From assembly GCA_963701095.1 (NCBI GenBank), contig OY969564.1, positions 64,001-128,000 on the forward strand: 64,000 bases of DNA, in the 5' to 3' direction. The notes below the pieces were generated by a model. That model did no database searches. It was not told where the DNA came from and saw only the letters and a program-made list of their open reading frames with translations. The stretch is from an uncultured Methanoregulaceae archaeon. Lineage in GTDB: Archaea; Halobacteriota; Methanomicrobia; Methanomicrobiales; Methanospirillaceae. The position numbers were made by a program, and so were the translations under genes. Below are positions 33,038 through 64,000 of the stretch, piece after piece; within the stretch, counting starts at the first letter, position 1; each line of letters begins with the position of its first letter.

Positions 33038-34108
33038 ATGATCATTGTGTCTTCCAATACTAAAAAGATACGAAGTGTTCCGCTCTATCTCTCGCTGCTC
33101 GAAAAAGCCGGGCGCTCGCAACAAACTATCAGAACCTACCGGGAAGCATTGCTCTATTTTTCCCGGTTCCTGGACGTGCCGCTTGAAGAGCTGCACAAGC
33201 ACCTGAGCGTTGAGAACCTCCTCGCTTATACCGATAGCGCGGCCCTGAAAGATGCCAGCCAGAACACTCGTCGCATGTGGTTAGCGATCATCCACAAGTA
33301 CATGAAACTGAATGGCGTGGAGTTCGACGAGCTGGAGACTTCCGTATTCAAACTCCGGCGTGACGATGTCAGGCGTGACAAGCCGCTGAAGATTGAGACC
33401 TTGCAGAAAATGATGGATCTTGCGGATGTGCATATGAAAGCATACCTGTCATTCCTCATCTCGACGGGTTGCCGGATTAATGAATCAGCGGAAATTCTGA
33501 TTACGGATATACAAGGCAATAGGGTTACGATACGCCCGGAGATCGCCAAAGGACGACATGGTGGCACAACATTCCTGACATCGGAAGCCCGGGAATACCT
33601 CGACCTGTGGCTGCGTGAGCGGGACCAGTGGATTCAACAGGCAAATGTGCGGACGAATAATATCGGATTGCGCAGACCTCAGGGTGACCAACGGCTCTTT
33701 GCCTGCACATCAAATAATCTCTCGAAACGGTTTCAGAAACTGTATGAGACTGTCGACGGCGAGAGCAGCCCTATTAAGGGCGGAACTCGCAACAAGATCA
33801 CCCCTCACTCGTGTCGCGCATATTTCCGGACACATGCCGTCACCAGCATGGGGATTGACCTGGTTGAAGGTATCATGCGGCATACCGGGTATCTGAATGC
33901 CGCGTATGTCCGCATGTCAGACGATGAACGCGAGAGGTTGTTTCATCTCGGAGAACATGAATTGTACATCACGAGGGCAAGCATACGCAATGAGGAACGG
34001 AAGATCGAGGAGATCAGAAGGGAGCAGGAAGAGAAAATATTGACCCTGGAACGACGGACTAAAATACTGGAAGCCTTACTGAAAATCGATGACTCAAAAA
34101 AGAAATGA
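33038..34108 (+). CDS. Tyrosine recombinase/integrase
   Basis: TGCRINE (R), AKG (K), PHSCR (HxxR), MRH, AAY (Y). Confidence 0.92.
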   Translation: MIIVSSNTKKIRSVPLYLSLLEKAGRSQQTIRTYREALLYFSRFLDVPLEELHKHLSVENLLAYTDSAALKDASQNTRRMWLAIIHKYMKLNGVEFDELETSVFKLRRDDVRRDKPLKIETLQKMMDLADVHMKAYLSFLISTGCRINESAEILITDIQGNRVTIRPEIAKGRHGGTTFLTSEAREYLDLWLRERDQWIQQANVRTNNIGLRRPQGDQRLFACTSNNLSKRFQKLYETVDGESSPIKGGTRNKITPHSCRAYFRTHAVTSMGIDLVEGIMRHTGYLNAAYVRMSDDERERLFHLGEHELYITRASIRNEERKIEEIRREQEEKILTLERRTKILEALLKIDDSKKK

Positions 34109-34307
34109 TTTGCCCTTAGTTTCATTTTTTGAAACTTTTGGTATTTTTTTTATATCATGTAAAGCGTTTTAGATATACCGCCTTGATTCTGAATAGATGT
34201 TAATTCACAGGGTTAAACAACAGATTCAGAGGGCGTTTTGGATCTGTTACCTTTCATACCGCACGTTTATGCATATAGAATCGGTGATACTGCACGCGCA
34301 AGACTAG

Positions 34308-34472
34308 GTGAGGCCAATTAATCCGACCATCGACGAACAACTTAATGATACCAATAAAAATTACAGTACGGGATTTGACGAGGATTTTCGACAGATTATC
34401 ATCAATATTATCAAGAGCGAAGAGTTTTCAGAATTTCTAAAAAAGGAAATTATCGAGATTGCTGAGAGATAA
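34308..34472 (+). CDS. 54-aa hypothetical, possible truncated paralog of the RHH repressor
   Basis: GTG..TAA ORF read manually; TATA-like element ~30-40 bp upstream. Confidence 0.4.
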   Translation: MRPINPTIDEQLNDTNKNYSTGFDEDFRQIIINIIKSEEFSEFLKKEIIEIAER

Positions 34473-34713
34473 TTTCTCTCATTAAACGCTCCAGTTCTCT
34501 TTTTACAGCCGGGTTACTCTTCATAAATGTAAGGATGGTTTCCTGCATACTACCTTCAAACTCTTTCCGGTTTTTATAATACTGTAACGCGGTATTCACC
34601 AAGTCACTAACTGACTCAAAAGGAGGTTTATTTCCATCTTTTGAATCTGTCTGATCCTGAACCCATTTGTCAAGATCGTTATTTATCTTGAATGACACCT
34701 GCCGTTTTACCAT
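34450..34713 (-). CDS. Ribbon-helix-helix regulator (putative repressor)
   Basis: RQVSFKI strand and FESVSDLVNTAL helix; divergent from the lytic operon. Confidence 0.7.
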   Translation of the reverse strand: MVKRQVSFKINNDLDKWVQDQTDSKDGNKPPFESVSDLVNTALQYYKNRKEFEGSMQETILTFMKSNPAVKRELERLMREIISQQSR

Positions 34714-34740
34714 AATCTTCTCGCCTCAATCTTAGTGATA

Positions 34741-34778
34741 ATGGTACTACCATATACGTTATTTAATAGTATCACCAT
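34741..34778. promoter_or_regulatory. Paired operator-like sites in the divergent control region
   Basis: ATGGTACTACCAT (perfect palindrome, 34741-34753) and ATAGTATCACCAT (34766-34778). Confidence 0.6.
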
Positions 34779-34854
34779 TTTTCCACCTTTTCGGCATGCT
34801 TATATTGTTCAATTTCGTAAGTAGATCCACCCACCATAGAGGTGTGAATGTAAA

Positions 34855-35001
34855 ATGAGTAAACGAGCAACAATTGAACTCGGAGACAACAATGAACGCA
34901 TCGTTGACACGCTTATCGAAAAAGGCATTTATAAAACCAAAATTGAGGCGATTCGTGCTGCAGTACGTGAACATGGCATAAAGTACGGAGTTTTGGCATG
35001 A
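34855..35001 (+). CDS. 48-aa ribbon-helix-helix protein (Cro-like position)
   Basis: MSKRATIEL...LIEKGIYKTKIEAIRAAVR; GAGGTG RBS; below the ORF-track cutoff. Confidence 0.7.
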   Translation: MSKRATIELGDNNERIVDTLIEKGIYKTKIEAIRAAVREHGIKYGVLA

Positions 35002-35165
35002 TCGAATCACTCGATTATCCGGCAGCGATGACCCCGGAAGATGTAAGATACTTCCGTGAACTCGGGCTCGGGCATAAAATAGACATTGGTCTGAAGATTG
35101 GTGCCCTGGAACTGATTAATGAGCAACAATATGGTGACCGGCATGCAAGCAAAAACAGGTTATAA
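34998..35165 (+). CDS. 55-aa hypothetical protein
   Basis: ATGA overlap with the upstream RHH gene. Confidence 0.5.
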   Translation: MIESLDYPAAMTPEDVRYFRELGLGHKIDIGLKIGALELINEQQYGDRHASKNRL

Positions 35166-35496
35166 CGGCGCCCCGACCCCACAGCCTGCAAGCATCGCGG
35201 GAGAGGGAAGCGCCGGTATAGTATCAGAACACGATCAGAAATATGTGCGCTCAACCTGCATCAGGTGCTGGCAGAAAGTCGTTATTGCATGGAAAAAGGG
35301 CGATTACCTGAAAGACAAGAAATGCCCCCTCTGTGGCGGCCGTCTTTTGGGTAAGGTGCCGGTCAAAAAGGGAGATCCTGATTACCCTGTTCTCGATGCA
35401 GACGCGACCCGGGCTACTGCGTTTCATTGTACAGCAGTCACAGGGACAAATCCGTTCGAGTTCGTGAGTTCTGCGCATGAACTGGTGGGACCATGA
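35119..35496 (+). CDS. Zinc-finger hypothetical protein
   Basis: CIRC...CPLCG. Confidence 0.6.
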   Translation: MSNNMVTGMQAKTGYNGAPTPQPASIAGEGSAGIVSEHDQKYVRSTCIRCWQKVVIAWKKGDYLKDKKCPLCGGRLLGKVPVKKGDPDYPVLDADATRATAFHCTAVTGTNPFEFVSSAHELVGP

Positions 35497-36308
35497 CCGA
35501 TCCCCGCATCATTGATTCACCTCTCGGTCCGGTGATCCCGGTAATCGATATCGCCAAACAGGTGGGATGCAGCCGCACTACCATCTCACATTCCATGCAA
35601 AGGCATCCAGCCCTTTTCAAGGATGTGACTTCAATTCAATGGCTGGAAACCCCTAGTGGCAGGCAGAAACATACCTGTATTGCAAAATCGGCAGTAGAGG
35701 ATCTTATCTCTCACCTACGGCCGATTAACCGTGACAACCTGCCGGAACGCATCGACACGTTCCGGGCGGCACAGATCAGGAAAAATAGTGCAGGAGCACC
35801 GGCCCTGTCTGATATTCTCGCCGAATATGCCCGGCAGGCAAGCGTGCTCGCAAAAGATTGGGATGTAAATCCGGCAGTTGCACAGAAAGTATCCATGGCA
35901 ACGGCCGTGGAAAGATATCCGGATCTGATGCCGTACCGGGCGCTTGTCGGAGGAAACGCTTCAGAAGAGGCACCAGTATCCCTTGCATTAACACCGGGCT
36001 TGCAGGCCGATCCCGATTATGACAAATTCTTCTCTCTCCGCAAGCTGGCACAGATCTGTCAGTGTGAAGAAAAAGTCGCCAGGAAGATCTTAGTCGATGA
36101 GGGTGTGATCGCATACCAGAACACCCACCTGATCCTTACCCATTATGGAGACCGGTTCGGCAAGATCTTTAAAGTCACCCCGGAAGCCCCACACAGAACG
36201 TATGAGGAAAGCAGGATCCGGTATAGCCCGGACGCCGTGCAACTCGTACGCGGGAAACTGTTCTGCATTCAGACAACACTTACGCAGGGAAAGAAAGCGA
36301 CGGGGTGA
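35493..36308 (+). CDS. Phage antirepressor-like protein
   Basis: N-terminal DNA-binding-like domain; C-terminal SLRKLAQ...L...G.I segment resembling KilAC/ANT. Confidence 0.6.
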   Translation: MTDPRIIDSPLGPVIPVIDIAKQVGCSRTTISHSMQRHPALFKDVTSIQWLETPSGRQKHTCIAKSAVEDLISHLRPINRDNLPERIDTFRAAQIRKNSAGAPALSDILAEYARQASVLAKDWDVNPAVAQKVSMATAVERYPDLMPYRALVGGNASEEAPVSLALTPGLQADPDYDKFFSLRKLAQICQCEEKVARKILVDEGVIAYQNTHLILTHYGDRFGKIFKVTPEAPHRTYEESRIRYSPDAVQLVRGKLFCIQTTLTQGKKATG

Positions 36309-36471
36309 CCTCGATGGGCAAGCGAAAACGCATGTTACAACGAGCAGCGCCGTTGCTGTTCCGGTCGCATGACCTGTATGCAGAGTGCCGGAAGTATGGT
36401 GTAAGGGATATCTATGATCTGCCGGTCACGGTGCATTTCGCGTTCCGGTCGGAGCGGCTACGAGGTGCAGC

Positions 36472-37137
36472 GTGAGAGCACAGTATTGTCGGGAGCATAT
36501 CGACAAAGTAGCTGAAGAGTGCGGCATCAGCGAAGAGTACGTTTCTGATGTGAAGAAAGCCGCCAAGTTTTGTTCAGTGGCAGGAGAATTCTCCGACTGT
36601 GCTACCAGCGCAATTCTGGCTTTGATTAACGTTTCGGATGATATAGTGAGAGATAAAGCCATATCGTCCGTGTCAAATTCGTTGAAATCACTAAAGCATC
36701 CCCTGAACGGGCAGTTCCTGAAAGAGCGAAAATTGCCAGAAAAGACCATCAAGAAGGTGATACGGAATATAGAGCGGGAAGTACGGGGCGAGCTGACAAA
36801 GACCTATGAGAAAGAGCGGCGACCTGCACCGGAAACACCAAAAGAACCTGAAATAGAGCATATTGTTGAGGCACAGACCGGGTTCACGACCGCGGCAAGG
36901 ATGAGTGACGGTCTTGGCAACACATTCATCCGGGGAAATCCGCTCAAAATCACACCGGTTCAGCTGACCAAACTACAGGCAGAATCCGCGATAACTTCTG
37001 TGGTTCGGGGTCACTGGACGGATAAAGATCGTGCCGCCCTGGATGATCTCCGCAAGAACGGAGAGCTCGGCGATACGGATCACGACATCCTCTACAATGC
37101 GATGTGGACGTGCCATGATCGGTTGGGGGGTGCGTGA
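36472..37137 (+). CDS. Hypothetical viral protein
   Basis: 221-aa ORF, coupled to neighbours. Confidence 0.6.
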   Translation: MRAQYCREHIDKVAEECGISEEYVSDVKKAAKFCSVAGEFSDCATSAILALINVSDDIVRDKAISSVSNSLKSLKHPLNGQFLKERKLPEKTIKKVIRNIEREVRGELTKTYEKERRPAPETPKEPEIEHIVEAQTGFTTAARMSDGLGNTFIRGNPLKITPVQLTKLQAESAITSVVRGHWTDKDRAALDDLRKNGELGDTDHDILYNAMWTCHDRLGGA

Positions 37138-37280
37138 TGGCCGAACACAAAAAAGGTCACAAGGGTACGGTATCTACCCTCCGGTACAACCGGCAACGGC
37201 GTCGGACAAAGAAAGGACTGGAAAAACCGATTGAGTATACCACGACAGTAGAAGAAGCAGCTCTCGCGTTGGTGATGTGA
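37137..37280 (+). CDS. 47-aa basic hypothetical protein
   Basis: TGATG overlap; MAEHKKGHKG... Confidence 0.45.
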   Translation: MAEHKKGHKGTVSTLRYNRQRRRTKKGLEKPIEYTTTVEEAALALVM

Positions 37281-37290
37281 TTTTGTCGCA

Positions 37291-37343
37291 TCTACCTACC
37301 TACCTCAGCGTACCGTCCGGTTATGTTATGTTATGTAACATAA
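37291..37343. repeat. Short tandem and inverted repeats
   Basis: CTAC x3, then TTATG x3 followed by inverted TAACATAA. Confidence 0.6.
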
Positions 37344-37401
37344 TCCGTAGTTCGGATTTTGGCATTAAGTCAATTTCAGGGTTCCATTCGCTGCAAAGGG
37401 G

Positions 37402-37869
37402 TTGGGGTCTTTGAGGAAAAACCACACCGTCAGTCTCGAAGAGGAAGATGTGCAACTTGCGCAAGCACTCGGTCTGACCAATCTTTCCGATTATGTCCGG
37501 AGTGCAATCTCGTATTTTATTTCTGGTTCAGATCGGGAACTCACCCCCACCGAGATCCGCGAACTCTCAAAAAAACTCGCTCTGGAAAAGCGAGCAGAAC
37601 TTCAAAAACAACAGAAAATCACCGGCCAGTCCAATGAGGAAAAACTGAAGATCGAAGATCTCCGTGCACAACGGCTTGCAAAGATTATCGAGTCGGTGAA
37701 AATCGAATCTTCCCGGGTCGGGTTCGACCGGTTCAAACGATACCTGGACGATCCCTATGGTGACTACGTTGCGATCCAAGACGACATTATAGCAGCAGTC
37801 TCGAATAGTGCCGGTTTCCCGGTGGATCTCGCTGATGTTGTCCAGGCGTTCAGGCAGGTGTCGGCATGA
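37402..37869 (+). CDS. Hypothetical protein with RHH-like N-terminus
   Basis: HTVSL...NLSDYVRSAI. Confidence 0.6.
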   Translation: MGSLRKNHTVSLEEEDVQLAQALGLTNLSDYVRSAISYFISGSDRELTPTEIRELSKKLALEKRAELQKQQKITGQSNEEKLKIEDLRAQRLAKIIESVKIESSRVGFDRFKRYLDDPYGDYVAIQDDIIAAVSNSAGFPVDLADVVQAFRQVSA

Positions 37870-38300
37870 GTTCCAACGGTGGCCCCCGGATTAAGAACGC
37901 GAAGAAAACCGTTATTGATAAGATCACTTTTGCATCGCATATGGAAGCCCGGCGATATATTGAGCTTAAGCGGCTGAAAGCGGCCGGGGTCGTGACTAAG
38001 ATTGATTGCCAGCCGGTATTTATGCTGCAACCTGCGTACCGGAAATGCTGCGATGTGAAATATGATGCCGAAATGACGCCGTTTCTCTATAAAAAAGGCA
38101 TCTGTGAGGTATGCGGGAAGAAGATGCCCGTGGTCAAGGCGATCCGGTATGTTGCCGATTTCCGGGTTACGTATGCAGATGGTCATTTTGAGGTAGAGGA
38201 AGTGAAAGGGTATGCCCAGGAGGTTTGGAGAATCAAGAAGAAAATTTTCGAATTCCGGTACCCGGAGATCACGCTTACAGTAGTAAAGAAGGTGCGGTGA
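37866..38300 (+). CDS. DUF1064-like PD-(D/E)xK nuclease
   Basis: FASHMEARRY, YVADF, EEVKG, KKKIF motifs; Cys-rich insert. Confidence 0.8.
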   Translation: MSSNGGPRIKNAKKTVIDKITFASHMEARRYIELKRLKAAGVVTKIDCQPVFMLQPAYRKCCDVKYDAEMTPFLYKKGICEVCGKKMPVVKAIRYVADFRVTYADGHFEVEEVKGYAQEVWRIKKKIFEFRYPEITLTVVKKVR

Positions 38301-38827
38301 TGACCCACAAACGCAACGGGAATTACAAAACCCTGAAAGATGAATGGGAAACCCCGGACTGGCTCTTTGCATTACTTGACCGGGAGTTTGATTTCCGGGT
38401 GGATGCAGCTGCTCGTAAACACAACACAAAAACCGGACTTTATTTCGAAGACGCACTTTCCGTAGACTGGGCGCATCAAGGGGGCATTGATCCCAGCTAT
38501 TTCCTTAATCCTCCCTACAGTGCCGGGAATATCTCCCGGTTTATGAAGAAAGCCTATGAGGAATCCCTGAAGGGTGCGGTAGTTGTTTGTCTTGTACCGG
38601 TCGCATCGGATACCGGATGGTGGCATACCTACGTGATGAAAGCAGACGAGATCCGGTTCATCAAAGGCCGGGTGAAGTTTATCGGGTACGATGGACAGGG
38701 CAACCCTATCAGGAACTCACCGACGTTCTCATCATGTGTTGTTATTTTTCGGGAAATGTATAAAAAAAGGTTCACTCCGTATATCGGGAAAACCGTCGAG
38801 CGACCCCGGAAGTGTGTGCAGTCATGA
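38300..38827 (+). CDS. Phage DNA N6-adenine methyltransferase (Dam-like)
   Basis: WETP, DAAA, NPPYS, FIKGRVKF motifs. Confidence 0.9.
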   Translation: MTHKRNGNYKTLKDEWETPDWLFALLDREFDFRVDAAARKHNTKTGLYFEDALSVDWAHQGGIDPSYFLNPPYSAGNISRFMKKAYEESLKGAVVVCLVPVASDTGWWHTYVMKADEIRFIKGRVKFIGYDGQGNPIRNSPTFSSCVVIFREMYKKRFTPYIGKTVERPRKCVQS

Positions 38828-39069
38828 ATGAAGAAACAAGAGTTATTTGGGGACGTTCACGAAGCGAGAAAGCAAAATATGTCCATCTTTTTATCAATGA
38901 CGAAGACTGCTGTGGACTAGGATCGCGGCTGGATCTGCAAAACGACGATTGGGATCCCAACAATCCCGAAACATGCCCGCACTGCAGGAAATATTTTGCA
39001 TGGCTAAAAAGGGGATTTCACCGCGTTCCAGAATCTTCAGGAATGCGTAAAAATTCGTTGGCTAAATAG
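38824..39069 (+). CDS. Cys/His-rich hypothetical protein
   Basis: H...CCG...CPHC. Confidence 0.5.
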   Translation: MNEETRVIWGRSRSEKAKYVHLFINDEDCCGLGSRLDLQNDDWDPNNPETCPHCRKYFAWLKRGFHRVPESSGMRKNSLAK

Positions 39070-39141
39070 AATATAATTGATAAGTTAAATCCCATTGACA
39101 CAACAGCACAATTAAGTGTTATACTATGGGATAGTTTAATT

Positions 39142-40353
39142 ATGGAAGGAGGATTCTATGAAATTTTTCCGGGAAAAAAGCAAAAAGAACATTTTGTCCC
39201 TAAATGGTATCTAAGAAATTTTTCTTCCACTCCAGATCAAGGTCATATATGGGTTTATACTACTGAAACGAAAAAAATTAAACAAGAGCCCATTAATCTA
39301 GTTGCACAAAAACAAGGATTTTACGGAAAAGAATTCGAAGATTCATTGGACCCGATTGATACTAGAACGAAGCGTGTAATTGAAAATATTATTTTAAGCG
39401 AAAATATTGATGGTTTAACAAGTACTCAGGAAACCACATTACATGAGTTTTTTACTTTACAATATTATCGAACAGAACATGCAAAAAAGCTCGTCGAAAA
39501 TCAGCTAGAATTTACCATAAAATTTCAAATGGTACCAAAATTAAAACAATCCTATAAACATATTGCCGAAAAAGATTTTGTATCGATATTGAGTGAACCT
39601 CCGACACCTAATTTTTTTCTGTTAAACATCGATATGGCATTATGTTCAATAAAAGCGTTATCCGATTTAACCCCATATTTAATAAAAAATAACACTAATG
39701 TGCCATTTTTTACGAGTGATGACCCCGTAGCTTTCAATAATCGTTATCATGTACCCAATAAATTTTTAATCGGTCTTCATTCCGTTGGTTTACAAATATT
39801 TTGTCCAATAAACGAAAGATACAGCATAATGTTAATTCATAGAGAGGCTTACGATTTAAAAAATTCTGATAGATCTCTTATCAAATTAACTTCAAAAAAA
39901 GATGTTGATTTATTCAATAAATTACAGATCTTAGACAGTCATTTCCAGATTTTTTCAAAAAAGAACTCCTTGAGTTATATTCAACATTTGCATAAAGAAT
40001 CGGAAATGATGAAAAAATCAAAAGGGTTCGACATAAAATTACAAAATGAGATTCCTAGTGAAATTAAAGAATATAAAAAAGTAGAAAGAAGAGACTATGG
40101 ATTACAATTTTCATTTTTAGAGCGTAATAAGAATTTTGTTAGGAACGAATGGCCAAAATGTTTAAGGGAATCACAATCATCCAAAACGGCTTTTGTGCGG
40201 AATAAAGAAATTTATGACGAAGTAATGGCTAATACCGACTCATTTATATCCTCATTTTTGAAGAATTATCAATCAATGATGGAGCAAAAAGTAACTCAGC
40301 TCGATTCAAAAACGATTTCTGTAAAACATCCAAGATATATCAATCAAACATGA
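39142..40353 (+). CDS. DUF4238 family protein (accessory, AT-rich)
   Basis: EHFVPKWYLRNF and FFTSDDPV motifs. Confidence 0.85.
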   Translation: MEGGFYEIFPGKKQKEHFVPKWYLRNFSSTPDQGHIWVYTTETKKIKQEPINLVAQKQGFYGKEFEDSLDPIDTRTKRVIENIILSENIDGLTSTQETTLHEFFTLQYYRTEHAKKLVENQLEFTIKFQMVPKLKQSYKHIAEKDFVSILSEPPTPNFFLLNIDMALCSIKALSDLTPYLIKNNTNVPFFTSDDPVAFNNRYHVPNKFLIGLHSVGLQIFCPINERYSIMLIHREAYDLKNSDRSLIKLTSKKDVDLFNKLQILDSHFQIFSKKNSLSYIQHLHKESEMMKKSKGFDIKLQNEIPSEIKEYKKVERRDYGLQFSFLERNKNFVRNEWPKCLRESQSSKTAFVRNKEIYDEVMANTDSFISSFLKNYQSMMEQKVTQLDSKTISVKHPRYINQT

Positions 40354-40551
40354 ATATTTTTTTTATTTTTTAACCATTTTCACTCTAAAAATCGCAATAT
40401 TCCATTCAATAAAGATTCTAAATTATCAATTTCACCGTCCCGCACCCTCCTTGACCATCCCGTACCCTAATTTCCACTTATCTCAGGCTACCGTCCATTC
40501 TCTTTGGTAAATGCCCCATCCAACGTGGCGGGGCTTTTGGAGTATTTTCTC

Positions 40552-41079
40552 ATGACAAACCCGATTGCAACGCCCACAGGGCTGTACAAGGCTGGTCCGG
40601 CCGGTGTCGGCGGCGAATACCAGACACTCGACTTGATCAACCAGCGGATCTTCATGCTGAACCAGGAACGCATCGTATATGGTCTCCAGTTCGCTGCACC
40701 GGCCACCGTGCCGGTAAACAACGAGGGCATCAAGGACAGCGTAATCATCGATATTGTTCTCGATGGCGACGATGCCCACACAATCCACGACCCGCACCAG
40801 TCGTATTCCTTCCTGTATTGCACCGACTATCCTGCACAACAGAATGGCACATGGTTCGGCTTCTTCAGGGTACCGAATAACAATCCGTCGCTCATTGCCC
40901 CAGGCGCGCACCAGGTCACTGTCAAGGTCGCACCCCGCACGCCTCCTCTGGCTGGTACATCCTCTGCTAACCAAATCCTCCCGCCCCGGAACTTCTCCCC
41001 GGCAGCTGGTGGCGTCAGCAAGACGTTCGTCTACTTTATCGAACCGCTTGCAAACATACCCTCGCAGACATCTGTGTGA
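40552..41079 (+). CDS. Hypothetical viral protein
   Basis: First gene after the DUF4238 insert; GC-rich codon usage like the virion genes. Confidence 0.65.
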   Translation: MTNPIATPTGLYKAGPAGVGGEYQTLDLINQRIFMLNQERIVYGLQFAAPATVPVNNEGIKDSVIIDIVLDGDDAHTIHDPHQSYSFLYCTDYPAQQNGTWFGFFRVPNNNPSLIAPGAHQVTVKVAPRTPPLAGTSSANQILPPRNFSPAAGGVSKTFVYFIEPLANIPSQTSV

Positions 41080-41081
41080 CC

Positions 41082-42051: not shown

Positions 42052-42058
42052 GGTACGC

Positions 42059-56156: not shown

Positions 56157-56184
56157 GATTACAACGGCTCTATTAATACGCCTT

Positions 56185-56346: not shown

Positions 56347-56387
56347 AAAGTAACACCTCTACTGATTGATATAACTTAATCATCCAA

Positions 56388-56451
56388 AGTATATATTCCT
56401 GCCGGTATGTATCCCCTTCGGTATGTATACCGTTAGGTATATATCCCTTAA
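56388..56451. repeat. Four 16-bp-period operator-like repeats
   Basis: Units start AGTATATATTCC, GGTATGTATCCC, GGTATGTATACC, GGTATATATCCC at 56388, 56404, 56420, 56436. Confidence 0.75.
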
Positions 56452-56475
56452 GGGACATAGTATAGGTAGTGAATT

Positions 56476-57717
56476 GTGATGACACAAACCCACGAACCCC
56501 TAACCACCAGCCGCGAAAAGAGGGGGCGAGCAATCGCAGAAAAGAGCGGTCAGATCCAGAAAGTCAAAGATAACCAGTACAAGGTAAGGTCACAGTCCGG
56601 CAACGGTTCCTATGAAATCAAAATCGGCAAGAATGGGGCCGAATGCAGTTGCCCGGATTTCCAGACCCGGCACCTGCCCTGCAAGCATATTCTCGGACTT
56701 CGCTATTACCTAGAAGTGCAGAAGGACACCCCCGAAGGCACTGTAACCGAAAAGGTACGTCTGACTTATTCCCAAGCGTGGAGCGCGTACAATGCTGCAC
56801 AGATCGAAGAAATCAAAATCTTCGATGCTCTGTTGAAGGATTTAGTAAAAGCAATCCCTGAGCCGGAACAGAAGATGGGGCGCCCACGCATACCGATGAG
56901 TGAAAACCTGTTCTGTGCTATTCAGAAGGTTTACTCTCAGTTATCCAGCCGTCGCGCTCACAGCCTCTTCCAGAATGCGGTAGAAAAGAAGCAGATCGAT
57001 CACGCGCCTTACTTCAATGCACCATCGGCCCTGTTCAACAAGCCCGAAATAACACCTATCCTTCAGGAGTTAGTCACGCTATCAGCGTTACCCGTTGCTG
57101 AGCTTGAAACAGACTTTGCGATTGACTCCACGGGATTCCGGACTACAACCTTTAGCGAATACTGTGGAATGAAACACGGGCAGAAGAAGGCTCACCGATG
57201 GATCAAGGCACACATGGCAACCGGCATTAAGACCAACATCGTTACCTGCATCGAAGTCACCGCTGGGAACGCCCACGATTCCACGCAATTCAAGCCCCTC
57301 GTTAAAGACATCTCAATGAATTTTAATATCCATGAAATTTCCGCCGACAAAGCTTACTCATCCCGTGACAATTACGAGGCCGTGAACGCAGTCGGTGGAA
57401 CTGCGTATATTCCGTTCAAGAGCCACGCAACTGGTAAGACTCGTGGTTCCCCCATCTGGAAAAAGATGTACCACTATTTCCAACTGAACAAGGATGAGTT
57501 CATGGAGCACTATCACAAGCGAAGTAACACTGAGTCAACCAACGCGGCCATCAAAAGGAAATTTGGGGAGACACTGAAATCGAAAAACCAGACCGCTCAG
57601 ATCAATGAACTTCTAGCAAAGATTATCGCCTACAATCTGACGGTAGTAATTCATGAGATGTATGAGAATGGGATCTCGCCAGACTTCCTGCACGTAAAGT
57701 CCGGAGCCTGCACGTAA
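56476..57717 (+). CDS. DDE transposase (IS5/IS903-like) with N-terminal SWIM zinc finger
   Basis: CSCPDF...CKH; AIDSTG, ADKAY, YHKRSNTES...K. Confidence 0.9.
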   Translation: MMTQTHEPLTTSREKRGRAIAEKSGQIQKVKDNQYKVRSQSGNGSYEIKIGKNGAECSCPDFQTRHLPCKHILGLRYYLEVQKDTPEGTVTEKVRLTYSQAWSAYNAAQIEEIKIFDALLKDLVKAIPEPEQKMGRPRIPMSENLFCAIQKVYSQLSSRRAHSLFQNAVEKKQIDHAPYFNAPSALFNKPEITPILQELVTLSALPVAELETDFAIDSTGFRTTTFSEYCGMKHGQKKAHRWIKAHMATGIKTNIVTCIEVTAGNAHDSTQFKPLVKDISMNFNIHEISADKAYSSRDNYEAVNAVGGTAYIPFKSHATGKTRGSPIWKKMYHYFQLNKDEFMEHYHKRSNTESTNAAIKRKFGETLKSKNQTAQINELLAKIIAYNLTVVIHEMYENGISPDFLHVKSGACT

Positions 57718-58550
57718 TGTCGGGTCAAATCCCTACTTTACGTGCAAAGCCGAATTCATGCCCCATTTATCCAGGTCTGACAAAAGGCTCTTTTGAAATT
57801 ACGGGTGAAAAACAATTATGTAAATCTTGCATGAGTAAAATTTTTGATGATATCCATGCGAAAGAGGTAGCAGATATTTCAATTTGTATGAAAGAGAAAA
57901 GGTTTGATGATGCTATTAAAATTTTTCAATCTATTTTCAATAACGAATCTGATAAAAACTGGTATAATCTTGGGAATTTGTACTACAATAAATTACAACT
58001 TTCTGACGCATTAGATTGTTATGATAATGCATTGTTCTTGAATACACATTACATAAAAGCATGGTATAGGAAGGGGACAATATTGTATAGCATATCAAAA
58101 CTTCAAGATGTTGAAAAACTCAAAGATTCTGCACAATGCTTTAAGAATATTCTCCTTTTAGATCCGAAAAATAAATATGGGTGGAACAATGCATCTACAT
58201 TTTTTATTGCATTATGCAGCATTTCTATTCATAATCGTTTTTTTCAAGACGGTAGCGATACAACACAAACAAACCAAGAAGTTCAAAAATGGGTTTCATT
58301 AAATCTAAATAATAAATATCCCAAAGATCTCGCAAGCGATCTTAAAAATCACCTTACTGGAAAGGCGGGTCGAGAACTTCTTAATGGACTTATTGATTGG
58401 TGGTTTTTAAATCATAAAAAAATATTGGATGCTCTTGAACCAAAAATTGGAGATATTAATCTTTATCCTGATGAAAGTAATGCCATAGAAAGAGTTTACG
58501 TTACGGCCGAAAACGCGAAGATTCCTGATAATTTCTCTAAAAAAATCTGA
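57717..58550 (+). CDS. TPR protein, 3' part of the interrupted gene with a transposon-supplied start
   Basis: WYNLGN...ALDCYDNAL TPRs; first 12 codons derive from the transposon end. Confidence 0.75.
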   Translation: MSGQIPTLRAKPNSCPIYPGLTKGSFEITGEKQLCKSCMSKIFDDIHAKEVADISICMKEKRFDDAIKIFQSIFNNESDKNWYNLGNLYYNKLQLSDALDCYDNALFLNTHYIKAWYRKGTILYSISKLQDVEKLKDSAQCFKNILLLDPKNKYGWNNASTFFIALCSISIHNRFFQDGSDTTQTNQEVQKWVSLNLNNKYPKDLASDLKNHLTGKAGRELLNGLIDWWFLNHKKILDALEPKIGDINLYPDESNAIERVYVTAENAKIPDNFSKKI

Positions 58551-58553
58551 AAT

Positions 58554-58902
58554 TCAATATTTTAATGAGGGTAATGAGTTTACCAAAGACGGTCAATATG
58601 CAGATGCTGTTGCATCATATGACAAGGTGCTTGCAATCAATCCGATAATTATAGGGCATGGAGCAAACGACGATAGGCTCTGTGTAATCTCGGTCGATAT
58701 TCAGAAGCGGCTGAATCTGATAAAAAATAGTTTATTATTTTTCATTTCTCATGAAGCTGAATTAGGAATGTTACCTGAAGAGATGGAATTTGGTATAACT
58801 ACAGATCCCTGTGTCAGACCTTTTATCATAGCATTTGCCATTAATCCAAATTCTGCAGGAGCGAAACAGAATCTAGAAATTGCGCTCAAAAAGATAACCT
58901 GA
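58554..58902 (+). pseudogene. Degenerate TPR gene
   Basis: GQYADAVASYDKVLAINP, then broken frames, ending AKQNLEIALKKIT. Confidence 0.65.
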
Positions 58903-58994
58903 TTTATACCTCGATGGGCAAGGACAGTTCTGTCAAGTCTTCTGTATAATTTCTTTTTACCTTTATAATTTTTCAATAAAAATCCCGTCTCCAG

Positions 58995-60389
58995 ATGCCG
59001 GAGATACCCCTGCTCGGTTCGCTGCAATCTTACACAGTAGCCGCCGCTGCTGATGGTGCACTCCTCGCACAAGGCCCTCTTTTCACCGCAAACAAGATCA
59101 ACAAAAACGGCTGGGGTATTCCCGAAGATGAAGCAGAGCATTTCGCCGCCTCGTTTACGGGAATGCCAATCCGGTATTGTCCGAAAGGGGTAGATACCGT
59201 TGCCAAAGACGGATCGCCGATTCCTGCCGCTCACTACTGCGACGCCATAAACAGCAGCCGAACGATTGTCGGGAACATTGAAAGCGTCTATCCGGTGGGA
59301 AAAGATGCCGATGATCGGACGATCTACGACATGAAAGCCCGGATTACAGACCCGAAGACCGTCAACGGCATTAAGGATGGCACCATCCCCGCGAGCTGGA
59401 GCCTGTGGGCATACGCCATAAAAGAATCCAACGACGGCATGATGCGGGGATGTCAGGGAAAGAGTGCAAGCATCGTCAGCGATCCGGCATACGCTGAGGC
59501 CCGGTTCCAGTGGCAGGCAATCGCAGCCTCCGCCGCTCCGGACCTTTGGAGCAGGGGTATCTACGAACAAGGAGCCAGAATGGCCGACGACAAACCAGAA
59601 AACCAGACAACGCTACCCGGGGTTACCCCAGTGGCAGCGGCTACCGGCGGTATCACCCAGGTATTCAACCTGGGCGCTGCTGCATCCGGTGATGGAACGA
59701 CCGATGGAAAAGAAAGTGCCGATGACCCCAAACCCGCCGAGAACAACGCAGTCTGTGCGAAATGCAAAGAACCCCTCCCGGCCTCTGCCAAGTTCTGCCC
59801 GGCGTGTGGCACATCGCTCCATGCTTCCTGCTCGAACTGTTCATCAACCATACCCCCGGGTGCGAAGTTCTGCCCGGCGTGTGGAAACCCGGCAGCTGCT
59901 CCTGATGGCAATATGAACACCACAGTTGGTGACAACTCCGTTGCTGCCTCACTGGTTGATAAGCTCGTTGAACAGAAACTCGCCGCCCGGCTCGACCAGG
60001 AAAAACGCCAGTCCCTTGCAGCCTCAATTGCACAGGTACAGGTCAAGACCGGCGTCCTCCAGCCGGCAGACACCGAGAAACGCATCGTTGAACTCATTGC
60101 ACTCCCGGCAGCAACCCTCGAAACCGAACTCAACAACTACTGCATGATCGCTGACAAACTCGGCAAACCGGTAGAGCAGGGTATGCGAAGCGGCCAGATC
60201 CCCGCTGCAGCAGCGTCAACCAATAATGGACTGCCGAAGATCCCCATGCCGGCCAATTACCGGGCAATCCTGAAACAGGCGCTCGGTATCGATGGCAGAG
60301 GCATGACAGATGCAGATATCCTCAAGTATGGCATTGCGAGGACTCCCGCCGGGGTCTGGCAGGGTTCGTACCATTCCAGCGAGGGATAA
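58995..60389 (+). CDS. Prohead protease/scaffold with double zinc ribbon
   Basis: NKNGW, H, WS and SIVSDPAY protease-like motifs; four CxxC pairs; upstream of the capsid genes. Confidence 0.75.
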   Translation: MPEIPLLGSLQSYTVAAAADGALLAQGPLFTANKINKNGWGIPEDEAEHFAASFTGMPIRYCPKGVDTVAKDGSPIPAAHYCDAINSSRTIVGNIESVYPVGKDADDRTIYDMKARITDPKTVNGIKDGTIPASWSLWAYAIKESNDGMMRGCQGKSASIVSDPAYAEARFQWQAIAASAAPDLWSRGIYEQGARMADDKPENQTTLPGVTPVAAATGGITQVFNLGAAASGDGTTDGKESADDPKPAENNAVCAKCKEPLPASAKFCPACGTSLHASCSNCSSTIPPGAKFCPACGNPAAAPDGNMNTTVGDNSVAASLVDKLVEQKLAARLDQEKRQSLAASIAQVQVKTGVLQPADTEKRIVELIALPAATLETELNNYCMIADKLGKPVEQGMRSGQIPAAAASTNNGLPKIPMPANYRAILKQALGIDGRGMTDADILKYGIARTPAGVWQGSYHSSEG

Positions 60390-60392: not shown

Positions 60393-61291
60393 ATGACAAA
60401 CCTTACCTATCCTATCGATATTCCTGAACGGCAGGGCAAGACCGTAAACCGTGGTGTTGCTGCCGGCGTCCCGATCTTCAAAGGTGGCCTCCTTGAACTC
60501 AACGTTCGCGGGTACGTCCAGCCGTTCTGCCCGACCGACAACCTGCCCTTCGCCGGTATTGCCGCAGAAGGTTCGATAGTCCCGATCTCCCCGCTCCAGG
60601 CCACGCTTGTTGGTACAACTGATGGATGGGCAACGGTTGGAGTCCAGATCACCGGCCTGCATAAGTTCTCGTACCCGCAGCCTCAGTCACCAACATCAAT
60701 GCCCTGGTATACACCGCTGGCGACGACAACACGATCTCGCTCGTAGAAAACGGGCAGCCGATTGGTATCGTCCAGGACTACGAGAGCGGTTATCTCTGGG
60801 TCAATATCACCGGATTTGCCTCCAGTCTCCCGCAGCGGCTTGATCCGGTCGGCGTGATCAATGTCCCCTTCAGCCTTGCAACTGGTACCCAGTACACCGG
60901 TATTACCCTTCCTCCCCGTGCCATTGTGATGGATGTGATCGTTGAATTTACGACCCCCCTCACTGGCGCTTCTGTCAGTCTTGGCCTTGCGACAATTGCG
61001 AACGGCAGCCTGAATAACAACTGCCTCGTGAATGGTTCGCTCAGCCCGGCCACCGGTTCACCGGGATTCGTTGATCTCATCTTCGAGTCCACAACGTCTG
61101 CGAACATTACGCTCGGTGCATTTCTGAACCAGGCAACCATCAAGTCCGGGGATGCAACCCCAATCTACGCAGCGACCCAGAAGTACTACGCTTCACCACA
61201 GAACCCGACCCTGACCCAGTTCGCCGCAACGGCGGTAGCAGCAGCAACCCCGATCACGGGTGTCTTCCACGTCCAGTTTATGGTGGTCTAA
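60393..61291 (+). CDS. Capsid decoration/cement-like protein (frameshift near 60677)
   Basis: FAGIA; VYTAGDDNT and IGIV after frame repair; between protease and capsid genes. Confidence 0.6.
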
Positions 61292-61293: not shown

Positions 61294-62277
61294 ATGCCCG
61301 TTGGTTTATCCGATCTTTATCCCGAATTTACGCAGCTCCTGATCCAGACCCAGTTTTTCCGGATTTACGATATCTATGTACCTGACGATTACGGCCTGTT
61401 TACGCAGGTAGTCCCCTCCACCAAAGAAGCCGAAGTCTACCCGACGATGGGTGCAGTTCCGCAGATGTCGCTTTTTGAAGGGGAACGGAAATTCTCCGGT
61501 ATCGGGAACAAACAGACCTTCATGGTCTTCAACAAGTCCTTCGATACCGGCATCAAGATCCCCCTGACAGTCTTCCAGGACGACCAGTACGGGATCCTGA
61601 CCCAGAAGATCGCCGAGCTTGCCATGGAAGGAAAACGGTTGCCCGTTTCCCTCGTGTACAGTGTCCTCCACAACGGAGCCCAGACCAGCGGGTCCAACTA
61701 TCAGGCCGGTTTTGACGGTCTCCCGCTCTATTCCCAGGACCACCAGGGTGTCGGTTCGGCATTCCAGAGCAATATGCTTGGCGGCACGAACACGCTCAAC
61801 GCTACAAACCTTCAGGAAGTCATCGCAAACATGCGGACCCTGACCGACCAGACCGGCAGGCCGCTGGGGATTATCCCGGACACGCTCATCGTTCCACCAA
61901 TGCTTGAGATTCCCGCCAAGCAGCTACTCCACTCGGCATTCTTCATGTCGGTTGGCACCGCTTCATCGCAGAACACCACCGCGTCAACCCCCGCTGGCGT
62001 CTACAATATCCCAACCAGCAACGAGTTCGGCGGTATCCTGAAGAAAATCATTGTCAACGAATACCTCACGAGCCCGTCCGAATGGCATGTTGCCTGTACC
62101 GGAAGGATGACCAAACCGGTTTTGCTCCAAGAGCGACAGGCACCAATGCTGACGGTCAAGATGGACCCGAACACCAGCGACGACGTGATGAAGGAAAACA
62201 ATGCGTTTGCCTCCATCTATGCACGGTGGGGAGCTGCCCCCGGCAACTGGATGACCGTCTACCAGGGAAGCTCCTGA
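61294..62277 (+). CDS. Major capsid protein, Mu gpT-like
   Basis: VPST..E.Y..MG.VP.M..F.GER, DDQYG, FDG.P.YS.DH, PDTLIVPP.LE motifs. Confidence 0.88.
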   Translation: MPVGLSDLYPEFTQLLIQTQFFRIYDIYVPDDYGLFTQVVPSTKEAEVYPTMGAVPQMSLFEGERKFSGIGNKQTFMVFNKSFDTGIKIPLTVFQDDQYGILTQKIAELAMEGKRLPVSLVYSVLHNGAQTSGSNYQAGFDGLPLYSQDHQGVGSAFQSNMLGGTNTLNATNLQEVIANMRTLTDQTGRPLGIIPDTLIVPPMLEIPAKQLLHSAFFMSVGTASSQNTTASTPAGVYNIPTSNEFGGILKKIIVNEYLTSPSEWHVACTGRMTKPVLLQERQAPMLTVKMDPNTSDDVMKENNAFASIYARWGAAPGNWMTVYQGSS

Positions 62278-62304
62278 TCTCACCTCTCATTTTTCAGGAT
62301 TCCA

Positions 62305-62730
62305 ATGACCGGCTTGATCTGGGCTAACGATATCGCGGCGATGCTTGAAACCGGATGCAGTTACTCCCAGGCGACGGTTGATGCCCTCGGCGCCGTCGTT
62401 GAGCAGTTCATCCAGGCCGAGCTTGACATGAACGGTTTACCGATTAACCCGGCCAACACGGCCGGGAGCGGTGTCGGCATGCTCATGGTCGCATCCCAGA
62501 ACTGGCTCTGCCGGGATATCCGGATCATGCAGAAGCATGACGGCACGATCCCGAACAGTCTCTCTGCCGGCCCGACACGGGAAGACGTTGCGATTGATGT
62601 CAGTATCAAATTTTACGATGATAAGGGACGGGCTGCACTTGACAAGTACATCCTGAGCCAGGCCGGCGACGAAGAGGACGACGAAGCACAGTATGCCGGG
62701 CTGATAGCCCTTGCCGGGGAAGATCTGTGA
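62305..62730 (+). CDS. Putative head-tail adaptor
   Basis: Size and position after the capsid gene. Confidence 0.55.
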   Translation: MTGLIWANDIAAMLETGCSYSQATVDALGAVVEQFIQAELDMNGLPINPANTAGSGVGMLMVASQNWLCRDIRIMQKHDGTIPNSLSAGPTREDVAIDVSIKFYDDKGRAALDKYILSQAGDEEDDEAQYAGLIALAGEDL

Positions 62731-63074
62731 CCGCACCAGTATTCCCTTCAATCTTTGTGCACACCTGCACGCTTCAGCATACGATATCTACGGGTAAGGA
62801 TCAGTATGGTGCACCATCGCCCAACAAACAGATCACTGCATCGGTTTGCCGGTTCTTTTCCTGCCAGGTTGCGGGGGAAAATGCGGCTGGTGTGCCGATA
62901 CTGGTTGATCAGCTCCATTGCCTCCTGCCATCTACGGCCGTCGTACAAGATGAGGACACTATCGTCAGTACGGTTCCGGGCTACAATGGCACGTTCCAGA
63001 TCATCAACGCTGAACCTGATACCACCCGGGCCGGCGTCCGGCACTGGACGTGTACGATCAAGAAGGTGGTGTGA
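62727..63074 (+). CDS. Putative head closure protein
   Basis: DQYG turn, beta-rich, HW near C-terminus; position. Confidence 0.6.
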   Translation: MTAPVFPSIFVHTCTLQHTISTGKDQYGAPSPNKQITASVCRFFSCQVAGENAAGVPILVDQLHCLLPSTAVVQDEDTIVSTVPGYNGTFQIINAEPDTTRAGVRHWTCTIKKVV

Positions 63075-63077
63075 GCC

Positions 63078-63332
63078 ATGGACGCGACAAAACCCCAAAC
63101 GGATCGTGAATGGCTGGTCCAGATTGACGGTAAGGTGGACTCCATCCTCGCCCGCCTTGAGAAAGGTGATACCTGCATGGAAGATTATGGCGACCGGCTT
63201 GATGTCCTTGAAAAATTCCAGGCTAAACTTGTCGGTATTGCCGTAAGTCTCTCCCTGATCGCTTCGGTCTGCGGGTACTGGATTCTCTGCAAGCTCTCCG
63301 AACTGGGAATCGGTAACGGAGGAGGTCACTGA
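63078..63332 (+). CDS. Small coiled-coil + single-TM protein (holin-like?)
   Basis: RLDVLEK coil followed by a hydrophobic helix. Confidence 0.5.
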   Translation: MDATKPQTDREWLVQIDGKVDSILARLEKGDTCMEDYGDRLDVLEKFQAKLVGIAVSLSLIASVCGYWILCKLSELGIGNGGGH

Positions 63333-63333
63333 C

Positions 63334-63729
63334 ATAACCGCCGAACTCGAAGGGCTGGAAGAGTGCATGGCTGGTTTACAGGATGCCCTTGATCAGGTTC
63401 ATGCAAGTTCCGGAAACGCTGCCATGCAGGGTGGTCTTGCGTATGTTGCCGATGTGAAAGCCCTCGCACCAGTCAAGAACGGTGAGTACCGGGACGGGAT
63501 CTCCTGCAAACCTTCTCCGGATGGTGATGGTTCCGTTATCGTCGGGTCTCCCGATCCTTTCTCCCGGCGGCTTGAGTACGGGTTCTACGATATGACCGAT
63601 TCTCTCGGCCGGCACTTTTTCCAAGAGCCCCGCCCGCATTTCCGACCGCCACTCGACACCGAGATGGACAGATATCTGGCGATCATGGCCGGCACTATTG
63701 CAAAAGAAGCTTTCGGGGATGATGGGTGA
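63334..63729 (+). CDS. HK97 gp10-like neck/tail completion protein
   Basis: APVKNGEYRDGI, LEYG, PRPHFRP; first ATG is 63367 but the frame extends to ATA 63334. Confidence 0.75.
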   Translation: MTAELEGLEECMAGLQDALDQVHASSGNAAMQGGLAYVADVKALAPVKNGEYRDGISCKPSPDGDGSVIVGSPDPFSRRLEYGFYDMTDSLGRHFFQEPRPHFRPPLDTEMDRYLAIMAGTIAKEAFGDDG

Positions 63730-64000
63730 TGCAGGATATTGTTCTTGCCGTCATCGACCAGCTGCTTGCCAATGCTTCCGTTGCCGGGCAGGTTGGGACG
63801 AACATCTACCGGGGCAACCTGCCACCATCACCTCCGTATCCTTCAGTCGTAGTAGACCGCGTCACAAAACTCCGGGAGGCCGGGAACAACACCGCCCACT
63901 ATGCAACCGCCCGGGTACAATGCACCGTCTTTACGCAATCCGATGGTCTCGCGGAAACTATCAGCGAGGCAATAGCGGACTGCCTGCACAGCACGACGAA
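63729..64000 (+). CDS. Tail terminator (DUF3168-like), 3'-truncated
   Basis: LLANASV...VGTNIY...P....YP.VV...RVQCTVF. Confidence 0.75.
   Translation, partial: MQDIVLAVIDQLLANASVAGQVGTNIYRGNLPPSPPYPSVVVDRVTKLREAGNNTAHYATARVQCTVFTQSDGLAETISEAIADCLHSTT

Follow-up and report, generated by a model that had tools for sequence, protein, structure and literature searches.

The window analysed herein, that is, the whole stretch of 64,000 nucleotides at positions 64001-128000 of the single 2.63-Mb contig of the genome G000 (G000:C1; genome position = window coordinate + 64000), contains at positions 33038-64000 an integrated temperate virus of an archaeon, assignable to the Caudoviricetes and equipped with a siphovirus-type tail; the stretch quite likely corresponds to the left half of a provirus of approximately 62 kb. 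The element is a genuine and probably complete provirus, and represents a new, undescribed lineage within a known kind, namely the temperate archaeal tailed viruses with defence cargo. The original prediction had combined a tyrosine integrase with a Mu gpT-type capsid protein in a tailed provirus, and this pairing was borne out by the family matches (PF00589, 1.3e-10, and PF10124, 7.4e-36, respectively). In contrast, its placement of the end of the element at position 64000 proved untenable, because the tail genes continue for another 8 kb and the repeat-bounded insertion extends to genome position 158858 (window coordinate 94858). It had also overlooked the defence genes and the insertion sequence (IS) among the cargo, the absence of MuF, a clustered regularly interspaced short palindromic repeats (CRISPR)-Cas locus inside the repeats, and the mosaic relatives residing in the same chromosome.

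The true attachment (att) repeat of the element was recognised only through comparison with the related genomes G020, G066 and G077. The attL core TAAATGATCATA (12 bp; window 32970-32981, genome 96970) overlaps the start codon of the host gene ilvE (window 32030-32980, minus strand) at the left edge, and a second copy of TAAATGATCATA, the attR core, lies beyond the window at genome 158847-158858 (window coordinate 94847-94858). The 12-mer occurs three times in the 2.63-Mb genome, two of the copies standing exactly at the edges of a 61.9-kb insertion, and the native ilvE upstream sequence restarts directly past the second copy. In both G066 and G020 the site was empty: the sequence homologous to G000 from genome position 158982 on begins only 150-400 bp past ilvE, and therefore the 61.9 kb could be recognised as an insertion in G000; the empty site of G066 holds one copy of the 12-mer. 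When direct repeats of at least 10 nt were sought between the integrase side and the region just past the tail genes, only chance-level matches were obtained. The integrase gene itself (33038-34108, plus strand, 356 amino acids (aa)) starts 57 bp from ilvE and showed further matches to PF02899 (1.2e-5) and phrog_1 (1.7e-16), as well as an NCBIfam XerA-type match (1.2e-17) that fell under the cut-off of that model. The element thus shows the features of an integrase-mediated temperate provirus, with the integrase gene at its left end, a direct repeat at either end and relatives in which the site is unoccupied. Judging from the repeats, the tyrosine integrase would have recombined the virus into a site overlapping the first ilvE codons with TAAATGATCATA as the core, leaving the integrase gene 57 bp from ilvE and the second core copy 61.9 kb away.

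Two further observations concern this site. The start of the integrase gene (window 33035-33046, AAATGATCATT) repeats the palindromic att core ATGATCAT found 57 bp away, and owing to this recurrence ilvE and the integrase gene open with the same codons (M-I-I) on opposite strands. In addition, G077 carries two copies of the 12-mer at the same ilvE site (L023, G077:C1:2034000-2050000) around a 4.9-kb remnant, which consists of a 108-aa integrase fragment, the DNA of which is approximately 85% identical to the window integrase, followed by methyltransferase, Fer4, MarR and hydrolase genes. Among 60 relatives, the sequence past the ilvE start was common only to G077. The MarR and Fer4 genes of the remnant were considered as relatives of right-arm genes in G000 and rejected, being not homologous by comparison.

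With regard to the host, which the original prediction had described as Methanomicrobiales-like, the presence of mcrA in G000 established a methanogen, and the assignment at the level of the order is suggested by a flanking gene, which in a profile scan (NCBIfam) matched an S-layer family whose name comes from a Methanomicrobiales species. This gene lies in the left flank of the element together with ilvE, tRNA-Glu and an MreA-family regulator gene. The provirus and its relatives occur in metagenomes from wetlands, peat and soil, which stem from no fewer than 16 studies.

The reliability of the underlying assembly was assessed with contigs (X1, X2, X4 and X5) assembled from four public runs of four studies, of which X1 may be the source sample; all results on junctions and loose ends refer to these contigs and to the rows listed for them. 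The contigs of all four runs inserted a G after position 47972 (portal gene) and a G after 41133, and dropped a base at 43597. The alignment to the IMG/VR contig L008 likewise reduced the frame break of the portal gene to one G in the G run at 47972, and X1 otherwise showed no differences. Because the contigs of four of four runs disagreed with the assembly, and because the marker completeness was only 86% for a closed contig, the breaks at 47972, 41133 and 43597 are assembly indels, not pseudogenes. The expectation that no pseudogenisation would be evident beyond probable sequencing indels was thus upheld for these three breaks; the fourth, at 60674, was not covered. As a practical warning, single-base indels of this assembly mimic pseudogenes.

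Such indel errors and the 86% completeness of a single contig could also be taken to indicate that virus and host sequences, or virus and low guanine-plus-cytosine (GC) sequences, were misjoined in the long-read metagenome assembly. We regard a chimera of this kind as extremely improbable, since the ilvE-integrase junction was bridged by contigs in four runs from four studies, pieces of the larger low-GC island occurred in X2, X4 and X5 with no differences, and L008 joins the same two flanks around other cargo. The flanks are accordingly not chimeric at the ilvE junction; the junction between the portal gene and the island was bridged in X1 only.

The genes of the viral core lie on the plus strand with a GC content of 52-55% (genome, 48.1%); much of the cargo is encoded on the opposite strand, and its GC content amounts to 32.3% at 38813-40479, 39.0% at 48746-58953 and 36.5% in the 3.7 kb past the fibre gene. 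From the integrase to the tail terminator, the named genes stand in the canonical order as originally predicted, but the order is not continuous, being interrupted by low-GC blocks of 1.7 kb and 10.2 kb.

The capsid gene (61294-62277, plus strand) encodes a major capsid protein (MCP) of the Mu gpT family, for which the PF10124 match lies above the cut-off and is accompanied by matches to phrog_371 (9.6e-39) and PF25209 (2.6e-7). These family matches (PF10124, PF25209 and phrog_371) point to the HK97-fold capsid that is characteristic of Caudoviricetes. It is the single gpT-type gene in the genome; gpT-family genes occurred in three of 301 sampled genomes of the host's order, G000 included, and the capsid protein of the element was found in none of the 60 relatives. 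In six IMG/VR contigs the capsid protein was 98-100% identical at a nucleotide identity of approximately 90%, which implies purifying selection.

Upstream of the capsid gene, the terminase small subunit (TerS; 43648-44103, plus strand; phrog_309, 1.1e-9) overlaps the large subunit (TerL; 44027-45652, plus strand; phrog_2, 1.7e-21), for which the PF03354 match, at just 0.0076, remained under the cut-off. Homologues of TerL with 64-96% identity were present in IMG/VR contigs, and a tblastn comparison with annotated terminases gave 22-24% identity. TerL is separated from the portal gene by a short variable stretch (45901-46595) of small open reading frames (ORFs) without a family match, across which an X2 contig joins 45901 to 46595 and near which loose ends occur at 46600. 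The portal gene (46978-48752, plus strand) appears as two ORFs of 343 and 248 aa, corresponding to a single 596-aa ORF in L008. Its product showed no direct Pfam or PHROG match, but an Atlas feature score of 0.96 to portal clusters; the family had 48 representatives among 1.84 billion proteins, and 11 of 32 distant homologues gave weak portal Pfam matches (nine Portal_Mu, one Phage_portal and one Phage_portal_3). Based on the position, the Atlas score and these weak homologue matches, we designate it a putative Mu-type portal. The AF2 model (pLDDT 34.8) was too poor for a fold search.

The next head gene (58995-60389, plus strand) encodes a 464-aa protein with a double zinc ribbon (PF12773, 1.7e-12), a conserved N-terminal domain with residues invariant in the alignment, and a coiled-coil C-terminus; 14 homologues were found among 5.8 billion proteins. 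Although it matched no protease family and its AF2 model (pLDDT 45.6) was likewise too poor for a fold search, its position suggests a putative prohead protease-scaffold protein, a role filled in Mu-like head modules by a gpI-type protease; the Atlas scores of 0.87-0.89 to prohead proteases are weak leads. It is followed by a virion structural protein gene split into ORFs of 117 and 145 aa (60393-61291, plus strand; phrog_1731, 4.9e-9, for the L008 form). Downstream of the capsid gene lie the head-tail connector genes (62305-63729, plus strand), of which only the last ORF showed matches, namely the HK97 gp10-like/Neck1 gene (63367-63729, plus strand; phrog_5, 1.3e-10; PF04883, 6e-4, just under the cut-off).

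In four distant relatives of three lineages (L028/L029 and L030, the TerL proteins of which are 64-66% identical, and L003), the portal gene is followed by a MuF gene (PF04233). No PF04233 match was found in the whole genome of G000 at E ≤ 1, and tblastn with the MuF proteins of the relatives gave no match in G000 or L008. The element thus possesses the gpT capsid of a Mu-like head module and lacks MuF beside the portal. Among named genomes, the nearest relative lies in the contig L003 (153420-174265) of a Methanocellaceae metagenome-assembled genome, which belongs to another methanogen family or order; it encodes a capsid protein with 53% identity, and it carries MuF and a type II methyltransferase gene between the portal gene and the zinc-ribbon head gene. 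We also noted that the MuF-type minor head protein of the IMG/VR contig L028 (13595-15061) begins with a class-I glutamine amidotransferase domain, to which the MuF part is fused.

The tail terminator gene (63726-64000, plus strand; PF11367, 5.4e-9; phrog_123) is cut by the window end, the full gene being L001:2726-3130. The next 8 kb encode the major tail protein, tail assembly chaperones, a 570-aa tape measure protein, Dit, Tal and the fibre, as judged from matches to phrog_158, tape-measure PHROGs, SPP1_Dit (1e-14) and Sipho_Gp37 (3.7e-42). Among the ORFs scanned, none matched a sheath family, and so the tail was assigned to the siphovirus type.

Comparison with 50,697 GenBank phage records yielded no close described virus: the closest capsid match, that of Faecalibacterium phage FP_Mushu (Mushuvirus mushu), was 28% identical over 98% of the length (E 5e-26), and the closest TerL match showed 24% amino-acid identity. 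No Methano* organism name was listed among the capsid and TerL matches in this collection, in which the presence of the Methanoculleus virus Blf4 was not verified. The head module of FP_Mushu is arranged as TerS, TerL, portal, MuF-type protein, protease, virion structural protein, gpT-type MCP, adaptor and Neck1, and the element shares with it the order of putative portal, structural protein, gpT MCP and connector after TerS-TerL, with the 464-aa protein standing where FP_Mushu carries its protease. Unlike this bacterial virus, which possesses a contractile tail with baseplate and sheath genes, the element lacks MuF and has a siphovirus tail. Moreover, the portal and protease profiles of FP_Mushu showed no detectable similarity to the proteins of the element, hhalign giving a probability of less than 1% for both the portal and the 464-aa protein.

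Transposable Mu-like siphoviruses of Pseudomonas such as H70, LPB1 and other members of the D3112/B3 group also have a gpT-type capsid (27% identity). Phages of this group possess a long non-contractile tail and replicate by DDE transposition, whereas the element relies on a tyrosine integrase gene and sits between direct repeats at a fixed att site. No Mu A or B genes were found among the ORFs scanned, and the only DDE gene is an IS-type DDE_Tnp_1 gene in the cargo; hence the DDE transposase A, the ATPase B and the random insertion that define Mu-type transposable phages are all missing.

As for viruses of archaea, Caudoviricetes proviruses have been described to carry restriction-modification, CRISPR-Cas and other defence genes (PMC11705971; PMC12596717). 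The systems described there are of type I-B, whereas the element encloses a type I-C locus that is complete, adaptation module included, and has 60 spacers. Neither the main text of PMC11705971 nor that of PMC13573593 mentions Methanoregula, Methanomicrobia or Mu-like viruses, and gpT is likewise absent from the former; our literature search found no description of this lineage. One isolated virus for Methanomicrobiales is counted among ten for methanogens (PMC9796341). The Methanoculleus virus Blf4, isolated from a Methanomicrobiales host, is described as a lytic virus of siphovirus morphology (PMC8540584); the element resembles it as a siphovirus-type virus of a methanogen that presumably belongs to the same order, but is temperate.

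The larger of the two cargo slots in the window (slot 2; 48746-58953, 10.2 kb, 39% GC) interrupts the head module between the portal gene and the next head gene. The block, which blastn found to be unique in the genome, starts directly past the portal stop codon and ends in the AT-rich promoter region of the next head gene; both junctions are intergenic, so that no viral ORF is disrupted. It encodes a 754-aa Ser/Thr protein kinase with a long TPR array (48888-51152, minus strand; PF00069, 1.2e-36; TPR_1, 9.6e-116), whose PADLOC matches to mad6 (3.5e-50) and PD-T4-6 (1.5e-48) are confined to the kinase domain and may reflect generic kinase similarity, and a TPR protein (51339-52163, minus strand; TPR_1, 1.4e-35). 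Next come a BsoBI-family type II restriction endonuclease (53749-54705, minus strand; PF09194, 1.5e-110, with the entire profile aligned; PADLOC REase_II, 3.5e-90) and its cognate type II DNA methyltransferase (54747-56156, minus strand; PF01555, 9.2e-13; PADLOC MTase_II, 6.1e-163; phrog_18146, 7.1e-49), the genes of which lie 42 bp apart on the same strand and thus form a type II restriction-modification pair. The block closes with an IS transposase (56476-57717, plus strand; DDE_Tnp_1, PF01609, 1.2e-24, with a SWIM zinc finger, PF04434, 6.7e-8), which is present as a single copy in the genome according to blastn, and another TPR protein (57717-58550, plus strand; TPR_1, 1.3e-10).

L008 aligns to 46606-48745 and 58954-66370 at approximately 90% identity and carries between them a different 4.5-kb cargo of approximately 30-35% GC, encoding an M78 peptidase, a DUF4411 protein, a HEPN protein and one protein without assignment. 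Four other capsid-bearing IMG/VR contigs begin within 1 kb of the right slot-2 junction. The comparable slot in the early region (slot 1; 38813-40479, plus strand, 1.7 kb, 32% GC) holds a DUF4238 gene (39142-40353, plus strand; PF14022, 2.1e-31). In the IMG/VR contig L027, which was found by the TerL search, both sides of slot 1 match and 1.56 kb of other sequence replaces the DUF4238 gene; among the run contigs, slot 1 was covered by X1 only, 39204-39867 was uncovered in X2, X4 and X5, and contigs of X2 and X4 join 38794 to 40480. The cargo turns over fast, since near-identical viruses in nature differ in the genes that occupy a given slot. Foreign DNA of 32-39% GC is held in at least three intergenic slots among the viral modules, the region past the fibre gene included, and this cargo would be expressed from the prophage and protect the lysogen.

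P2/P4-type temperate phages and satellites likewise have fixed intergenic slots in a conserved backbone, with fast-exchanged defence cargo of lower GC. The slots described here differ from such hot spots in their archaeal host and in the location of one of them within the head operon, where it separates the portal gene from the putative protease gene and is used by two proviruses with different head modules.

The second of these proviruses (provirus 2; genome 786607-848833, covered by L051, L052, L049 and L050; 62.2 kb) carries at its two ends, at 786607 and 848760, a 42-nt repeat that corresponds to the 3' part of tRNA-Thr(GGT). Its early and tail modules are 74-93% identical to the window provirus at the nucleotide level, with a different terminase and no gpT capsid gene. 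The layout is that of the window provirus: the integrase gene is followed by DUF1064, a first low-GC slot, the ParB-N and ATPase-GNAT genes, terminase and portal, a second low-GC slot, the head genes, a siphovirus tail and the polB-like gene. The first slot, which is the same as slot 1 of the window provirus, holds GmrSD_N, HEPN and GGDEF genes, and the second, past a Portal_Mu portal gene, holds reverse transcriptase, nitrilase-like and PD-(D/E)XK genes; PKD/PEGA and BacA genes are also carried in its low-GC blocks. At the right end, a 669-aa polB-like gene lies 265 bp from the tRNA/attR and 5 kb from the tail genes. A third related element was located at approximately 2069300-2112000. Its integrase gene occupies 2069677-2070123, its polB-like gene 2109988-2111989, and its early genes share 77-81% identity with window 34117-43662.

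Past the fibre gene of the window provirus, the right arm (genome 135.9-158.8 kb) comprises a post-fibre block with DUF3800, the CRISPR-Cas locus, redox genes, a polB-like gene, and Fic and DUF4258 genes; flavodoxin-like, nitroreductase and MarR genes are among its contents. The type I-C locus is complete, with cas3, cas5d, cas8c (csd1), cas7, cas4, cas1 and cas2 in addition to an array in which 61 repeats enclose 60 spacers. Outside the array, no spacer matched the own genome over more than 19 nt, and none matched 23 external loci over more than 16 nt; self-targeting or inter-virus targeting by the array, which had been considered, therefore found no support in the genome or in these loci. 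The cas3 gene (L001:14585-16802, genome 139585-141802) was observed as two overlapping ORFs, one of 431 aa with the HD and DEAD domains and the other of 327 aa with the helicase-C and Cas3-C domains, and this split may be another assembly indel.

The three polB-like copies, each 40-60 kb downstream of a related integrase gene, are mutually 88-92% identical, and a fourth, at 72% identity, resembles the gene that most genomes of the genus possess in one copy. The location of the gene inside the tRNA-bounded provirus 2 shows that polB belongs to the right arm of this virus family. Two of the copies (154090-156091 and 2109988-2111989) were found to be broken near residue 276, each with a TAA codon, and those at 846 kb and 602 kb were whole; a break at one and the same residue points to a truly split gene or to a mutation passed on by inheritance rather than to an error of the assembly. 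We also noted a conserved leader of approximately 85 nt with the inverted repeat CCGGATCC...GGATCCGG, running into a start codon with MQIKI as the first codons, at genome positions 154029-154110, 601709, 716116, 782031, 783974, 786248, 846422 and 2109932. It precedes the polB-like genes and occurs in at least four other places, and an Rfam search with the 85-nt leader gave no match.

Several observations weigh against the interpretation of the 61.9 kb as one complete virus. The exact repeat is short (12 bp), and the rows listed for the run contigs contained neither an excised or circular form nor an attP junction. The portal and protease assignments are indirect, both structure models being poor, and the absence of MuF could mean a head-assembly defect. 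The fourth frame break, a 1-nt gap at 60674, lay outside the stretch covered by the run contigs; the gene split there is an intact 299-aa ORF in all five IMG/VR contigs that fully cover the locus. As for the right arm, a related contig from a metagenome, L031, is homologous at 80% nucleotide identity precisely up to the stop codon of the fibre gene, beyond which it has a tRNA-Thr, so that this related virus ends past the fibre with no right arm. Furthermore, the cas flanks in all three other genomes of the genus with a related I-C system (Cas8c occurred in 4 of 61 genomes) share nothing with the element, and neither Cas8c nor the polB-like protein had a relative in IMG/VR. For these two reasons, the packaging of the right arm is regarded as putative. 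Scans of IMG/VR with the fibre and Tal proteins also gave no match, and that with the integrase gave one partial match of 45% identity (L026).

The points on the head module bear on the possibility that the element is a domesticated or defective prophage, which forms no infectious particles and is inherited vertically as a carrier of defence genes. Apart from the lack of a MuF gene that relatives possess, this would be in line with the 10 kb of foreign DNA, IS included, inside the head operon, with the ilvE-integrase junction being present in four of four runs without an empty site or circular form among the rows listed, and with the failure of all 60 spacers to match the own genome outside the array or the 23 external loci. 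However, the slot-2 island leaves every viral ORF intact because of its intergenic position, assembly errors account for three of the four frameshifts examined, and all other hallmark genes are of full length. The capsid protein is under purifying selection (98-100% protein versus approximately 90% DNA identity in six IMG/VR contigs), and the two cargo sets on MuF-less backbones suggest that the lineage keeps spreading. Taken together, we consider a defective prophage to be somewhat doubtful, and the provirus may be inducible.

The points on the right arm would be explained if the locus were a composite, in which a provirus of approximately 39 kb, from the integrase to the fibre, lies beside an independent 23-kb island or older mobile element comprising the low-GC block, the I-C CRISPR-Cas locus, the redox, MarR and polB-like genes, and the Fic and DUF4258 genes, both having been inserted at the ilvE hot spot with the internal att since lost. 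Consistent with this, the related virus in L031 ends directly past the fibre gene, the cas module stands in other genomes without viral neighbours, the right arm holds host-like redox genes, and G077 illustrates how the ilvE site gathers unrelated DNA between the same repeats. Nevertheless, neither a second integrase gene nor an internal att copy, with one mismatch allowed, was found between genome 97 and 159 kb; provirus 2, bounded by its 42-nt tRNA repeat, holds a polB-like gene 5 kb from its tail genes; and without the right arm, the window provirus would be the sole one of the three related elements to lack polB. A composite origin thus seems distinctly unlikely, and we prefer a single provirus of approximately 62 kb, the whole of which would be packaged.

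The remaining genes of the window provirus belong to the early region. The stretch at 34450-37869 gave no Pfam, PHROG or NCBIfam matches; it begins with three small minus-strand ORFs (34450-35254) that oppose plus-strand ORFs without a family match, and from its position it would comprise the lysogeny switch and early genes. The segment 36461-38307, 93% identical to provirus 2, also covers the gene of a DUF1064 protein (37866-38300, plus strand; PF06356, 2.5e-28; phrog_190, 5.4e-33), annotated as a Holliday-junction resolvase in PHROGs, and this is followed by the gene of an orphan Dam-type N6-adenine DNA methyltransferase (38225-38827, plus strand; PF05869, 3.6e-30; phrog_111, 1.2e-47; PADLOC orphan MTase, 2.7e-22). 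Beyond slot 1, which interrupts the early region, lie a minus-strand gene without a family match (40483-41506, displayed as two ORFs at 40483-41187 and 41036-41506 owing to the indel at 41133), the gene of a ParB N-terminal-domain protein (41957-42595, plus strand; PF02195, 6.3e-6; phrog_620, 1.6e-45), and that of an ABC-type ATPase fused to a GNAT acetyltransferase (42574-43602, plus strand; phrog_11143, 5e-89; PF00005 and PF00583), the 3' end of which is hit by the indel at 43597. Outside the element, three adjacent, overlapping ORFs in different frames at window 27403-29339 all matched HEAT-repeat (phycobilin-lyase-like) families, and look like one host gene split by assembly indels.

Considering the related elements of this chromosome together, a broader and more tentative reading, which we rate as rather unlikely at present, is that a genus of wetland methanogens hosts mosaic temperate siphoviruses of approximately 62 kb, the fixed intergenic slots of which, one of them inside the head operon, would exchange whole defence systems, namely restriction-modification, kinase, reverse-transcriptase and GmrSD-type systems, and even a complete I-C CRISPR-Cas system. 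The genome length would then be held at the capsid capacity, as the 61.9 and 62.2 kb of two proviruses with different head modules may indicate. If this reading is true, immune genes would move among methanogens to a large extent by way of such viruses, one of which would package the CRISPR-Cas locus and pass it on.

The particulars that set the provirus apart are the att site at a start codon, the head-operon slot at the place where relatives hold MuF, the I-C locus inside the repeats, and the two co-resident relatives of 62 kb. The att site at the start codon of a protein gene provides a testable case of integration, and the possibly virus-borne, complete CRISPR-Cas system in a methanogen provides another testable case. 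Few reference viruses are available for this host group. The provirus offers a bounded and probably complete reference genome of a new lineage, whose relatives occupy methane-emitting habitats, and it illustrates the extent to which defence genes ride on such viruses.

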